DNA of 64,000 bases from NCBI GenBank assembly GCA_041659065.1, contig JBAZYY010000003.1, forward strand, positions 20,696 through 84,695, written 5' to 3'. This DNA comes from Parcubacteria group bacterium. Lineage in GTDB: Bacteria > Patescibacteriota > Minisyncoccia > Moranbacterales > UBA11712. The position numbers were made by a program, and so were the translations under genes. A model generated the notes under the pieces. It ran no database searches. It saw only the letters and a list, made by a program, of their open reading frames with translations, and was not told where the DNA came from. Positions within the stretch are counted from its first letter, which is position 1, and each line of letters begins with the position of its first letter. This document shows positions 40,013-61,855 of the stretch, piece after piece.

Positions 40013-40234
40013 TAAATCAGCAGAGAAGCAGTATAGTGATATTAACAATTTAGCCTAAACTCACGCCTTCTGGTGTGAGCATGGCGCATAAAACCTAGCT
40101 AATAGAGACGGCCTCATGGTCGACACTTATTAGCTAGGTCGGTGTTCCGAAAGGGCATCGGGCAATCCGAAAGGGTTGTCGTCGTACTGTGGGGCCTTTT
40201 GTGTACCCACAAAATAAATCCTAGCTAAAAAATC

Positions 40235-41471: not shown

Positions 41472-41621
41472 ATATCTTGATGGCGATAGGACTGGAACCG
41501 AATTAATGGCTTGAATAAAGTAAATCGATTTTTTTATGGCGACCGGACGTTGTGAAGCTATGGCCTAAAATAGCTTGTATATAGTAAAAAGGATCGGTCT
41601 CTCGATAAAAAAATGTAGCTG

Positions 41622-41930
41622 CTCCCGGGACAGGATTCGAACCTGTAACCAATTGATTACACTTATCCTAATGTTTCCAAAAGGGGTGGACTATATCATT
41701 CCCGCATAGCGGGATGAGGCGCTTCCCCCGACGTGACGTCGGAGTACTCTCTTTCGAGATAGTCTCTGAACCTTCCCTGACATTAAGTCGGGGCTTGGCT
41801 TCTGATTACCTTTTTTCGGCTGAAGAAAATTAAGGCTTCCAGAAATTCACCTCATTTTCACTTCCAAATTTCTCTGAAAGGCTGCGTTTAATGTTCACAG
41901 TCAACTGCTCTACCATTGAGCTACCCGGGA
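41622..41930 (-). tRNA. tRNA gene interrupted by a group I intron in the anticodon loop (anticodon most consistent with GUU/Asn; alternatives not excluded)
   Basis: 5' exon UCCCGGG-UA-GCUCAAUGGUAGAGC-A-GUUGA-CUGU. The 3' exon is UAAUCAAU-UGGUU-ACAGGUUCGAAUCCUGU-CCCGGGA-G. The acceptor halves are perfectly complementary across ~300 nt. The intervening ~236 nt carries the group I core elements R (GGTTCAGAGACTA) and S (ATGATATAGTCC), a P1 (CUGU/GCAG with a U.G pair at the splice site), a P10, and a terminal G. Confidence 0.7.
41660..41895 (-). ncRNA. group I self-splicing intron (tRNA anticodon-loop insertion)
   Basis: Conserved R and S elements forming P7 (GACUA/UAGUC), P- and Q-like elements (AATTTCTGGAAGCC / AATCAGAAGCC), and an omega-G at the 3' end. 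There is no internal ORF. Confidence 0.65.
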
Positions 41931-41933
41931 ATA

Positions 41934-42170
41934 TTATATTCTATTTTTTAGGAACCTTCTTCCAAAACCAGTCTTAAAATATTTCTCTCTTTGAATTGCT
42001 TTATTGCGATCCAGGCAAGCTTCATAATATACCAGGACAAGGGGAGCTCTTTCTTTTGTGGCGTCAACCAATTTCGAGTTATGTTCTTTTAATCTTTTTC
42101 TAAGATCTGCTGTAAAACCAACATACAATTTATTATCGTTTTCACTTTTAATAACGTAGGTATAATACAT
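41934..42170 (-). CDS. GIY-YIG nuclease superfamily protein (YhbQ-like)
   Basis: MYYTYVIKSENDNKLYVGFTADLRKRLKEHN is a GIY-YIG core. It ends 4 nt from the tRNA 5' end. Confidence 0.7.
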   Translation of the reverse strand: MYYTYVIKSENDNKLYVGFTADLRKRLKEHNSKLVDATKERAPLVLVYYEACLDRNKAIQREKYFKTGFGRRFLKNRI

Positions 42171-59254: not shown

Positions 59255-60043
59255 ATGGCAATAATCGATAAAATCAGGTTTCTCTTATCCAGGATGGAAA
59301 TCCTTCGCAACGTTTTTCTGATAGTATTTCTGATTTTGGTCGTCACAATTATCCTAACCCCCATTCTTGTCAGCCGGGGACTTTTTGGCTTTACGGAGGA
59401 AGCTTTTGAAGCAGTCCTTCTTTTTGTGCAGGTATCGGTAGCGTGGAACGTTTTTCGGCAATACGAAAAAACGGTCAAACGGCAGGAGGAAGAAACTCGA
59501 AAACTGGAAATAGAATACGAAATAAAAGAAAAAGAGCTCTTGGAAGCTTTCAAGCACCTGGGCAAAATTAACGTACAAATATCGCTGGTAAAATCTTTTC
59601 TGCAAAAACTTAAAGCTCCCACCTCAAAAAAGGAGATGAAACAATATATCGATGAGATCTTGCGAATTGCTCTTTCTCTGGCAAGAAAGCAATGGATCGC
59701 GCTAAAGATGATAAACCCGGAAAATCTCAACACGGTCTCCGAGCACTGGGCGCAAGTTTCACCCAACACGAAAGTCGATGATATTAAGATAGGCAACAAA
59801 GACATTATTGATCTAGCGGATAAAAATGATATCTGCAATAAGGATGGCTATTGCGTAATTACATCTGAAGGGGATGGCACCGCGCCTCTCCGGGCTTATC
59901 TGGTATTTCTTGAAAATAAGAAAATTGACCCCGAAATCAGGGATTTTCTCGAAGCGGCGGCGAATCAATGCGAGCTTCTATATGCCCTTTATTCCCTGAA
60001 ATATAAAAAAGACAACGGGAAATCGGTAATTTTCGGGCCTTAG
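59255..60043 (+). CDS. hypothetical membrane protein (262 aa)
   Basis: An N-terminal TM helix and a coiled-coil central region. Confidence 0.4.
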   Translation: MAIIDKIRFLLSRMEILRNVFLIVFLILVVTIILTPILVSRGLFGFTEEAFEAVLLFVQVSVAWNVFRQYEKTVKRQEEETRKLEIEYEIKEKELLEAFKHLGKINVQISLVKSFLQKLKAPTSKKEMKQYIDEILRIALSLARKQWIALKMINPENLNTVSEHWAQVSPNTKVDDIKIGNKDIIDLADKNDICNKDGYCVITSEGDGTAPLRAYLVFLENKKIDPEIRDFLEAAANQCELLYALYSLKYKKDNGKSVIFGP

Positions 60044-60063
60044 CGCCAAAAGCGCGAATAAGT

Positions 60064-60092
60064 CTTGACGCAGGGCGAATAACCTGTTAAAT
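60064..60092 (+). promoter_or_regulatory. sigma-70-like promoter (TTGACG-17-TAAATT) for the glyS leader
   Basis: A near-consensus -35 and -10 with 17-nt spacing, ~360 nt upstream of glyS. Confidence 0.4.
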
Positions 60093-60099
60093 TAATTCA

Positions 60100-60454
60100 T
60101 GGGGAATTGGCAACTCCTCCGATAAAATTCCATATTTAAAGTGTCTTTTGAGATTAGCCTGTCCTCCAGCCAGGAAATTTCAGAGGGAAGTCGGGTGGAA
60201 CCGCGGACCGATTAGTATCTGGTATTTAGTATCTAGTATCTAGTATTTTGGAATGATCCTGAAAATATTGATCAGCGAAATACTAAATACGAAATACTAT
60301 ATACAAAATACGATTTTGGCTCGTCCCGAATATCTGAAATTAATTTTTTGGATGTTTAGGACGAGCTTTTATAATAAGCTAAAAAGTAAAAATGAAAAGT
60401 GAAAAAGTCTGGTGTCGCTTCGCGATTATTATATTAAATTGTTAAATTAATATT
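60100..60454 (+). promoter_or_regulatory. T-box-like leader upstream of glycine--tRNA ligase
   Basis: Contains GGGTGGAACCGCGG, matching the T-box consensus AGGGUGGNACCGCG 13/13. A candidate GGCA specifier context lies upstream. A strong intrinsic terminator follows at 60318..60370 (GGCTCGTCC...GGACGAGC + TTTT). The spacing is atypical because an intervening repeat-rich hairpin is present. Confidence 0.45.
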
Positions 60455-61855
60455 ATGGCAGAAAAAAAAGAAAACATGATGGAAAAAATTGTGTCGCTGT
60501 GCAAGCGGCGGGGATTTGTTTTTCCTTCTTCGGAAATTTATGGAGGGATGCAGGCTATTTATGACTATGGCCACTACGGGACATTGCTGAAAAATAATAT
60601 TCGCGACGAATGGTGGAAGCATATGGTGCAATTTCGAGACGATGTGGTTGGTCTCGACAGTTCCATTTTCATGCATCCGACAACTTGGGTGGCTTCCGGA
60701 CACGTGGAGGGTTTTGACGATCCGCAAATCGATTGCCGCCAGTGCAAAGCCAGAATGAGAGCTGATCATGTTCTGGAAGAGCATGGCATCAGCGCCGACA
60801 AAGCGCCGATTGAATTCATCAATGAAAAACTCGACGAATTGCGGGCAGCCAAAAAATTGAAGTGCGTCGCCTGCGGATCGGATGATCTCACTCCGGCGAA
60901 AAGATTTTCTTTGATGGTGAAATCGAATCTGGGATCCCCAACGGATGCGTTGAGCGAGGAAAACGTAGTGTACTTGCGGCCGGAGACTTGCGGAGGAATT
61001 TATTTGGAATACAAAAATACCGTTGATTCTTTGCACGTGAAGCTGCCTTTCGGGATCGCTCAAATCGGGAAGGCCTTCCGCAACGAAATCGTTGCGCGGC
61101 AATTCATATTCCGCACTCGCGAATTCGAACAAATGGAAATGCAATATTTCTTGCACCCGAGCGTCATGAAAGAAAAATATGATATGTGGAAACAAATCCG
61201 CTGGGACTGGTATCTTGAATATGGCATAAAAGCGGATGAAATTCGCTGGTACAAGCACGAAAAGCTGGCGCACTACGCTTCCGAAGCCTACGACGTTGAG
61301 TATAATTTCAAATCCCTTGGAGGTTTCAAGGAAGTTGAAGGAATCCACGCGCGAGGAAATTGGGATTTGTCGCAGCATTCCAAATTTTCGGGAGTGGAAC
61401 TTGACTATTTCGACGAAAAGACCGGTGAAAAATTCATTCCTCATATCATGGAGACTTCAGCTGGTCTCAATCGGCATGTGCTGATGTTCATTGATCAGGC
61501 CTACACCGAAGAAAAAGTCGGCGATGAAACAAGGGTAGTTCTGAAATTTGACAAGAGGCTAGCGCCGATCAAAGCGGCCGTTTTGCCGCTTTCCAAAAAA
61601 GACGAGCTGACCAAACCTGCCAAGGAAATTTGGAATACATTGAAAATGCAATTTATGACGGACTATGATGAAACCCAATCAATTGGCAAGCGCTATCGCC
61701 GGCAGGATGAGATCGGAACACCCTATTGCGTGACGGTTGATTTTGAAACTTTGAATGACAAAGCCGTTACGGTGCGCGAACGGGATTCAATGCAGCAGGA
61801 AAGGGTGAAGATTGAAGAATTAGTGAAATATCTGAGAGAGAGAATAGGGGATTAA
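60455..61855 (+). CDS. glyS: glycine--tRNA ligase (alpha2 dimeric type)
   Basis: Class II motifs (FRNEI ... RTREFEQME; GLNRHVLMF), a zinc/insertion region, and a C-terminal anticodon-binding domain; 466 aa. Confidence 0.9.
   Translation: MAEKKENMMEKIVSLCKRRGFVFPSSEIYGGMQAIYDYGHYGTLLKNNIRDEWWKHMVQFRDDVVGLDSSIFMHPTTWVASGHVEGFDDPQIDCRQCKARMRADHVLEEHGISADKAPIEFINEKLDELRAAKKLKCVACGSDDLTPAKRFSLMVKSNLGSPTDALSEENVVYLRPETCGGIYLEYKNTVDSLHVKLPFGIAQIGKAFRNEIVARQFIFRTREFEQMEMQYFLHPSVMKEKYDMWKQIRWDWYLEYGIKADEIRWYKHEKLAHYASEAYDVEYNFKSLGGFKEVEGIHARGNWDLSQHSKFSGVELDYFDEKTGEKFIPHIMETSAGLNRHVLMFIDQAYTEEKVGDETRVVLKFDKRLAPIKAAVLPLSKKDELTKPAKEIWNTLKMQFMTDYDETQSIGKRYRRQDEIGTPYCVTVDFETLNDKAVTVRERDSMQQERVKIEELVKYLRERIGD

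Follow-up and report, generated by a model that had tools for sequence, protein, structure and literature searches.

A reduced T-box-like leader with a repeat-built antiterminator extension upstream of glyS in a Parcubacteria group bacterium

A 64-kb stretch of contig from a Parcubacteria group bacterium (hereafter, the window) contains an interval of 411 nt between the stop codon of an open reading frame (ORF) of 262 amino acids (aa; 59255-60043) and the start codon of glyS. Judging from its sequence elements and modeled structures, this interval very probably encodes a transcription attenuator for glyS of this Parcubacteria/Moranbacteria-group bacterium, namely a T-box of reduced architecture that senses tRNA-Gly. 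All coordinates are positions in the window, and all features of the leader lie on the + strand. An original prediction, made from the sequence alone, had proposed a T-box-like leader with an atypical insertion ahead of an alpha2-type glyS, and this proposal is supported by the predicted RNA fold, by covariation and by the recovery of 13 leaders.

Elements, alternative folds and conservation of the glyS leader

The sequence elements of the leader and both of its alternative structures are shown here, as are their conservation and covariation among relatives. The features are as follows, together with the gene they precede.

60065-60093, + strand: sigma-70-type promoter, TTGACG (60065-60070), 17-nt spacer and TG-extended -10 element TAAATT (60088-60093), from a promoter scan and direct reading
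60101-60117, + strand: truncated Stem I (specifier hairpin), GGGG (60101-60104) with CUCC (60114-60117), 4 bp and a 9-nt terminal loop, AAUUGGCAA
60109-60111, + strand: putative specifier codon GGC (Gly), followed by A60112, in the terminal loop of the 17-nt hairpin
60118-60143, + strand: A-rich linker, at the site of Stem II and the IIA/B pseudoknot in canonical T-boxes
60144-60187, + strand: Stem III, 60144-60155 with 60176-60187, inner cap 60158-60161 with 60171-60174 (RNAfold)
60191-60207, + strand: T-box and 5' half of the antiterminator, A1 UCGGG (60191-60195), bulge UGGAACC (60196-60202) and A2 GCGGA (60203-60207)
60208-60319, + strand: insert in helix A2, 112 nt, 29% G+C, with an array (60213-60246), a central stem-loop (~60249-60277) and an inverted array (60278-60311)
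60320-60329, + strand: 3' half of the antiterminator, A2 CUCGU (60320-60324) and A1 CCCGA (60325-60329), shared with the 5' strand of the terminator
60318-60370, + strand: intrinsic terminator, 60318-60339 with 60346-60367, loop UUAAUU and run UUUU (60367-60370)
60455-61855, + strand: glyS, the putative regulated gene, an alpha2 (dimeric) glycine--tRNA ligase of 466 aa (ORF list)

The T-box 14-mer GGGTGGAACCGCGG at 60193-60206, which the original prediction had pointed out, is confirmed; it is the sole exact match in 64 kb and is not encountered in any of 100 shuffles. In the RNA, GGGUGGAACCGCGG at these positions gives a UGGNACC-type bulge of 7 nt between helices A1 and A2. When residues 60095-60335 were folded without constraints by RNAfold, leaving out the 3' strand of the terminator, a textbook antiterminator was obtained, composed of a 5-bp A1, the 7-nt bulge UGGAACC and an A2 helix prolonged by the insert. 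A pairing model of the kind that the original prediction depended upon can therefore be built. In the core of A2, GCGG (60203-60206) pairs with UCGU (60321-60324), and A60207 is mismatched opposite C60320. The UGGA of the bulge fits the U73-CCA end of E. coli tRNA-Gly, and in the glyS T-box of S. aureus the same sequence pairs with the UCCA end of tRNA-Gly (PMC4574755).

If the 3' strand of the terminator is included in the fold, CUCGUCCCG changes partner and the terminator forms, with the insert hairpin persisting. The terminator hairpin (60318-60367, 50 nt, -27.4 kcal/mol) consists of 9 bp, one C.A mismatch, 12 bp and a 6-nt loop as predicted by RNAfold, and corresponds to the strong intrinsic terminator that had been placed at 60318-60370. 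A simple terminator scan overlooks it because of the internal mismatch. The computed energy of the antiterminator domain is -42.5 kcal/mol, versus -27.4 kcal/mol for the terminator plus -31.2 kcal/mol for the insert hairpin; the off state is more stable by ~16 kcal/mol, which is the usual default-off layout.

Upstream of these elements, GGC-A is found at 60109-60112 in a hairpin loop, in keeping with the GGCA that had been noted in a plausible specifier context. The loop codon specifies glycine in every one of the 13 leaders (GGC in 11, GGA in 2), and UGG is invariant; the loop reads U-GGC-A in 10 leaders, U-GGC-U in one (locus L091) and U-GGA-U in two (L015 and L093). We infer that GGC at 60109-60111 pairs with the GCC anticodon of tRNA-Gly. 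Moreover, UUGGCAA in this loop exactly matches, as reverse complement, the heptamer UUGCCAA that forms the anticodon loop of E. coli tRNA-Gly(GCC), and thus the specifier hairpin could conceivably make a kissing contact with the anticodon loop that exceeds three pairs. The U73 discriminator and UUGCCAA anticodon loop of this tRNA were checked at 100% identity in 5426 genomes. ARAGORN detects no tRNA in the window and none in 34 related loci. Two GGA triplets, in the stem of the hairpin (60103-60105) and in Stem III (60173-60175), were considered as specifiers and rejected, since neither is conserved in relatives.

The promoter had been predicted as TTGACG-17-TAAATT at 60064. Both hexamers and their spacing are present, with the first base at 60065 rather than 60064, and transcription would be expected to start at ~60099-60101. 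In 9 of the 11 tabulated leaders the -10 element ends 4-8 nt ahead of the specifier hairpin, and the promoters match 9-11 of the 12 consensus positions. The distance is larger in L002 (18 nt) and L015 (26 nt), both of which have an additional outer helix. Six of the seven members of the clade that includes the window have TTGACA-17-TA(C/G/T)(T/G)AT, the window itself having TTGACG-17-TAAATT, and the promoter of L088 (TTGACA-17-TATTAT, read by eye) fits the same pattern.

The linker between Stem I and Stem III measures 24-31 nt across leaders and is not conserved save for AAAG(A/U)G just 5' of Stem III. The RNAalifold consensus predicts no helix in the linker, and no conserved Stem II or pseudoknot was found there by RNAalifold or in the alignment of leaders. 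The hairpin and the T-box are only 66-94 nt apart, and the promoter is adjacent, so that neither a K-turn nor an internal Specifier Loop nor the AG-bulge/distal-loop double T-loop (IDTM) platform could fit. Three leaders (L002, L015 and L093) have an added 5-bp outer helix and internal loop, still without the platform. Stem III comprises 44 nt in the window (60144-60187); taken as ~47 nt, it exceeds the stems of relatives (23-27 nt) by roughly 20 nt, and it is linked to the T-box by a short purine-rich junction.

The glyS loci of relatives (L numbers) were taken from genome contigs, the closer ones through a protein search and 12 contig look-ups (of which P0006 and P0012 were without DNA). The leader is present upstream of glyS in L081 (identical to L082; GlyRS 92% identical to that of the window), L083 (90%), L084 (88%), L085 (89%), L086 (89%), L087 (87%) and L091 (identical to L092; 82%; Moranbacteria RIFOXYA12_FULL_44_15), as well as in L002 (73%, Nealsonbacteria), L015 (57%, Moraniibacteriota) and L019 (55%). 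In total, 13 distinct Patescibacteria glyS leaders have a common architecture. The T-box is not universal, being absent from most of the distant Patescibacteria loci (L001-L026) and, within 1.2 kb 5' of glyS, from L089/L090.

Pairing and covariation were scored in a MAFFT-based alignment of 11 leaders in which long inserts were trimmed to 3+3 nt. In the antiterminator form (Stem I, Stem III, A1 and A2), 96.9% of cells are paired and compensatory changes affect 10 of 18 pairs; in the terminator form (Stem I, Stem III and terminator), the corresponding figures are 95.3% and 14 of 26. The terminator helix on its own contributes 18 pairs, 9 of them compensatory, with 94.9% of cells paired. For both forms, none of 500 shuffles matches the observed pairing or covariation score, and sliding the partner by one column causes pairing to fall to 52-66%. 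The Stem I hairpin, Stem III and the terminator also emerge from RNAalifold as an independent prediction.

A covariance model built from the 11 leaders, R1, covers the window sequence including the insert at 104.9 bits and finds two leaders outside its training set, at 71-245 of L088 (138 bits) and at 585-748 of L093 (86.7 bits). With the 13 leaders aligned to R1, 97.6% of cells are paired and 17 of 23 pairs are compensatory. Stem III accounts for nine compensatory pairs out of nine modeled (98.3% of cells paired), the specifier hairpin, which is kept in all 13 leaders, for three of four (95.8%), and A1 for four of five. This alignment is fitted to R1 and hence leans toward the structure, a bias of which the MAFFT-based counts are free. 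The 7-nt bulge, beginning with UGGA, is likewise retained in all 13 leaders, and each has a U run of 4-7.

Neither an R1 scan nor a motif search reveals a second T-box in the window. The sequence GGATGGCACCGCG at 59872-59884, within the upstream ORF, is one mismatch from the T-box core and lacks accompanying structure; such a near-match is at chance level, as at least three matches with up to two mismatches are seen in 19 of 100 shuffles. A separate feature concerns the loop of Stem III, which reads AUCCAG in L083-L087 (CUCCAG at 60165-60170 of the window), complements UUGGAU on the terminator's 3' strand and also resembles AUCUGA on its 5' strand. A possible competitor pairing between this loop and the terminator is restricted to the closest clade and is absent from L081.

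A repeat-built extension of helix A2

The insert in the window was originally described as a segment of tandem AGTATCT repeats located between T-box and terminator and able to form a stem of ~22 bp with an inverse copy. The segment is present, but it is not a separate spacer; rather, it constitutes an apical extension between the two strands of A2. The repeats do pair with their inverse copy, but the arms are longer than proposed, each spanning 34 nt (60215-60248 with 60278-60311) with 82% complementarity. By Tandem Repeats Finder, each array holds 4.9 copies of its unit, which is TAGTATC at 60213-60246 and the inverse at 60278-60311. The insert folds alone as a long imperfect hairpin (-31.2 kcal/mol), stacks on A2 via CCGA/UUGG pairs and is present in both the antiterminator and terminator folds. 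Unconstrained folds of the domain always retain A1, the 7-nt bulge and A2, with the insert stacked on A2.

The length of this apical sequence differs greatly among leaders. It comprises 5-6 nt in L083, L086, L002, L019 and L093, and 14 nt with a UUC-GAAA-GAA mini-hairpin in L084, L085, L087 and L088, and the longer versions in L015, L081, L091 and the window measure 43, 54, 103 and 112 nt, respectively. The inserts of the window and L081, whose GlyRS proteins are 92% identical, share an identical 15-mer, GTATCTGGTATTTAG, and that of L081 carries four GGTATNT heptamers in one arm only. The two inserts are thus homologous, and the one in the window grew by gain of units and inverted duplication. 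The L091 insert is made from another repeat, with two copies of GTTTTTAAAGTTCATAAA plus the inverse, and that of L015 is likewise unrelated. Given that the window/L081, L091 and L015 inserts are mutually unrelated, outgrowths of the same loop arose at least three times independently.

The heptamer array has no further copy in the 64 kb, even with up to 3 mismatches allowed. An origin of the insert from a mobile element was considered and rejected, as there is no second copy, the insert continues A2 and a relative has a one-armed version of the array. The original suggestion of a riboswitch disrupted by an element is not borne out either: A2 is closed cleanly by the insert, unrelated inserts occupy the same loop in relatives and the repeats have no second copy. 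The insert is also dispensable for the architecture, because relatives with 5-nt loops keep the switch and it is therefore not required. It would be tolerated because it is predicted to fold independently in both states.

Proposed mechanism, known T-boxes and alternative readings

From these structures we infer tRNA binding, the identity of the specifier, regulation that depends on charging and whatever role the insert may have, and we propose the following mechanism. Transcription would start at ~60100, and the first ~17 nt would fold as a small hairpin whose terminal loop would offer GGC to the anticodon of tRNA-Gly. The unstructured linker and Stem III would be made next, followed by the T-box sequence. 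If the tRNA is uncharged, its UCCA end would pair with UGGA of the 7-nt bulge, and the antiterminator thus stabilized (A1, 60191-60195 with 60325-60329; A2, 60203-60207 with 60320-60324) would permit readthrough into glyS. With a charged tRNA, or with none, CUCGUCCCG would pair with sequence on its 3' side, and formation of the terminator at 60318-60367 would stop transcription at the U run. The 112-nt hairpin would represent a lineage-specific outgrowth of the A2 apical loop that folds by itself in both states and leaves the switch intact. It would also lengthen, by ~110 nt of transcription, the interval from synthesis of the tRNA-binding bulge to the termination decision, a delay that could help a T-box without a fast-capture platform.

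We put forward more tentatively that these leaders represent the smallest natural class of transcriptional T-box, confined to Patescibacteria. Members of this class would consist of a 5'-terminal specifier hairpin and a discriminator domain, would lack both the double T-loop and Stem II, and would capture tRNA by an extended loop-loop contact, in which U-GGC-A(A), or up to UUGGCAA, would engage 5-7 nt of UUGCCAA. Expansions of A2 and Stem III might help such T-boxes by delaying the termination decision. If this proposal is true, T-box regulation extends to Patescibacteria.

The leader has much in common with transcriptional T-boxes of the glyQS type from B. subtilis and Geobacillus (RF00230). 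Shared features include the T-box 14-mer, UGGA within a 7-nt bulge, helices A1 and A2, Stem III immediately preceding the antiterminator, an intrinsic terminator mutually exclusive with the latter, the absence of Stem II and the IIA/B pseudoknot, a GGC codon and a glycyl-tRNA synthetase gene under control. In contrast to those T-boxes, Stem I is ~17 nt rather than ~85-100 nt long, there is no K-turn and no double T-loop elbow platform, and the codon is in a terminal loop instead of an internal Specifier Loop, on a hairpin at the extreme 5' end of the transcript. Scores against RF00230 are 0-43 bits, versus a gathering threshold of 93 bits. Thus, of the properties of class I T-boxes, the leader has those of the core, namely bulge and antiterminator, exclusive terminator, Stem III and a codon matched to the amino acid, and it lacks the 93-bit score and the long Stem I with its K-turn, S-turn Specifier Loop, AG bulge and distal loop.

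Translational T-boxes upstream of actinobacterial ileS genes (Sherwood et al. 2015, via PMC7583486) also have a truncated Stem I without the IDTM, as well as frequent insertions in Stem III and helix A2. However, those T-boxes rely on a Stem II S-turn domain and the IIA/B pseudoknot, whereas an unstructured linker of 24-31 nt is found here. They sequester the Shine-Dalgarno sequence rather than forming a terminator, and they differ in specificity (Ile versus Gly) and in phylum. Features of class II are accordingly missing from the window leader, which has no Stem II domain in its linker and no sequestrator, and whose U-run terminator lies 85 nt 5' of the start codon.

Another precedent is stem Sa of staphylococcal glyS T-boxes, an appended A2 hairpin of 25-50 nt that modulates readthrough and tRNA selectivity (PMC9177973, PMC4574755). 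As in that case, we observe a lineage-specific hairpin in antiterminator helix A2 of a T-box that would control an alpha2-type glyS. However, stem Sa is conserved in all staphylococci, whereas the insert at the same position here may measure anything from 5 to 112 nt in near relatives and has unrelated sequences, so that neither its length nor its sequence is conserved across the lineage. The window insert, unlike stem Sa, is made of tandem and inverted heptamer repeats.

Several observations weigh against assigning these leaders to the T-boxes. They have no K-turn, internal Specifier Loop, double T-loop platform or Stem II, yet the double T-loop platform has been described as essential in transcriptional T-boxes, where the Stem I elbow platform is said to be needed to catch tRNA before RNA polymerase reaches the terminator. 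A truncated Stem I is said to work only with a Stem II domain, and hardly binds tRNA without one (PMC7583486). The base 3' of the codon is U, and not a purine, in 3 of the 13 leaders. The terminator hairpin of the window ends in UUUUAU, which provides only a short U run. No tRNA-Gly gene of this lineage was retrieved, so that the matches to anticodon and discriminator are based on bacterial tRNA-Gly in general. Finally, RF00230 yields no match in the window, either at its gathering threshold or at E<=10, and none of the orthologous leaders reaches 93 bits.

The Rfam results are more informative when sub-threshold matches are considered. At gathering thresholds, no T-box is reported in 20 related loci, and a permissive scan of 59950-60520 returns only spurious microRNA-like matches to the long hairpin. 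In orthologs that lack the long insert, however, RF00230 is the top match below threshold, with scores of 43.2 bits in L019, 42.4 in L086, 38.8 in L085, 38.2 in L087, 34.0 in L084, 30.4 in L083 and 29.3 in L002 (E=4.9e-5). In the alignments shown, Stem III and the antiterminator align well, whereas 65-68 model positions in Stem I are skipped in L019 and L086, and the match in L002 is restricted to model positions 104-219. RF00230 fails because the canonical Stem I is missing and, in the window, because of the 112-nt insert, and not because the T-box core is absent. Of the two outcomes that the original prediction had paired as speaking against a T-box, the lack of an RF00230 match above threshold is what we find, whereas the lack of conservation is not: T-box motif, Stem III, antiterminator and terminator are kept and covary across 13 leaders.

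An unlikely, though not negligible, alternative is that the T-box is not self-sufficient and that its tiny Stem I needs a partner, either a protein or the A2 and Stem III expansions contacting the acceptor arm or elbow of the tRNA. The poor tRNA binding of a truncated Stem I without Stem II would fit this explanation, as would the insertions in Stem III, and above all those in helix A2, that are often found in T-boxes without a long Stem I (PMC7583486); the window has both expansions, and stem Sa of S. aureus affects tRNA selectivity. However, L083, L086, L002 and L019 keep a covarying switch with a 5-6-nt A2 loop and a short Stem III, and the expansions are therefore not a general requirement. 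The inserts of the window, L091 and L015 are also unrelated in sequence, and no candidate protein partner was identified. We consider it improbable that the window T-box has been disabled by its insertion, leaving a riboswitch in decay with a constitutive terminator or leaky leader, even though the insert is very large (112 nt), AT-rich and composed of the tandem repeats typical of slippage, the A60207/C60320 mismatch in A2 is unique to the window and at least one near relative (L089/L090) is without a T-box in the 1.2 kb 5' of glyS. All conserved elements are intact in the window, the unconstrained fold is the canonical antiterminator, R1 spans the insert at 104.9 bits, and the insert is coaxial with A2 via CCGA/UUGG. 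A homologous insert occurs in the relative whose GlyRS is 92% identical, and the insertion thus persisted through speciation. Furthermore, glyS is the only GlyRS gene seen here and must be expressed.

It is conceivable but very doubtful that the (UAGUAUC)n array is itself the sensor, serving as a site for a repeat-recognizing RNA-binding protein in a manner like that of TRAP or PyrR attenuation, with the T-box likeness being secondary. The five regularly spaced UAG-containing heptamers, and the related array of four in L081, are what might be expected of such a site, but the array is missing from 11 of the 13 members, which retain the whole switch, is largely paired with its inverted copy and has no other copy in 64 kb. 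Little in the data favors a chance T-box-like motif beside the ordinary terminator of the upstream gene, apart from the lack of an RF00230 match in the window. The 14-mer is not expected by chance (0 in 100 shuffles), a promoter stands between the upstream stop codon (60043) and the element, and conservation and covariation across leaders whose GlyRS proteins are only 55-92% identical effectively refute this reading, which we regard as scarcely credible.

A tRNA-Gly-sensing T-box of reduced architecture thus remains the interpretation that we favor. Conserved, covarying T-boxes of the terminator type that have neither platform nor Stem II would contradict the view that these docking devices are needed, and would give mechanistic and synthetic studies a natural minimal scaffold of ~130 nt. 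Among near relatives the A2 loops vary between 5 and 112 nt, a natural experiment on the tolerance of an antiterminator for added RNA. Patescibacteria rely on hosts for amino acids, and to our knowledge almost nothing has been established about regulation in these organisms; the glyS leader would be the first concrete example of riboswitch-type control of an aminoacyl-tRNA synthetase in the group. In 8 million full texts we found no report of a T-box in Patescibacteria, the candidate phyla radiation, Parcubacteria or Saccharibacteria, consistent with the original remark that T-boxes are uncharacterized in candidate-phylum bacteria. The papers that the same literature yielded on riboswitches and Patescibacteria are not about native riboswitches, although synthetic ones are mentioned as a possible tool. 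Annotation at Rfam thresholds would miss these leaders because they score far below the gathering threshold. Likewise, TBDB rests on RF00230 and on a class II model restricted to Actinobacteria, and therefore probably does not include them.

Locus context and other RNA features in the window

The glyS product matches NF003211 (610.6 bits) and TIGR00389 (glyS_dimeric; 477 bits), in agreement with the alpha2 type proposed from the start. It is 100% identical to a protein in a metagenome-assembled genome designated 'Parcubacteria group bacterium', and its nearest relatives (80-92% identity) carry the labels Moranbacteria, Moraniibacteriota or Patescibacteria. In two relatives the T-box lies ahead of a gene pair, a putative acyltransferase gene and glyS in L088 and a NUDIX hydrolase gene and glyS in L093; these arrangements suggest that the minimal T-box can control a two-gene unit. 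In L019, a small ORF sits between leader and glyS.

In the window, ~85 nt lie between terminator and ATG, whereas this spacer is roughly 25-50 nt long in close relatives. It contains a second heptamer microsatellite (60381-60408), which is A-rich and AAAAAGT-like with 3.9 copies, and which hints at slippage-prone replication. The upstream 262-aa ORF (59255-60043) is unannotated and matches no NCBIfam family. In L081-L087 its place is taken by a gene that encodes 243-246 aa and for which no Pfam hit is recorded, and by position the 262-aa ORF may be a clade-specific conserved neighbor of glyS.

Two further structured RNAs are present elsewhere in the window. A full-length LOOT RNA motif (RF03000), a structured RNA motif of unknown function, is found at 40052-40180 on the + strand and scores 69.7 bits versus a threshold of 46.4 bits. 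It lies ~1.5 kb from a tRNA gene on the - strand (41560-42010) that contains a group I intron (RF00028, 78.7 bits; intron 41667-41907). On the minus strand, the intron is flanked by UCCCGGGUAGCUCAAUGGUAGAG on its 5' side and by ...AAUCAAUUGGUUACAGGUUCGAAUCCUGUCCCGGGAGCA on its 3' side. The unspliced, intron-bearing gene is not detected by ARAGORN in the window, and splicing in silico gives tRNA-Tyr(GUA) or tRNA-Leu(UAA), depending on the splice offset.

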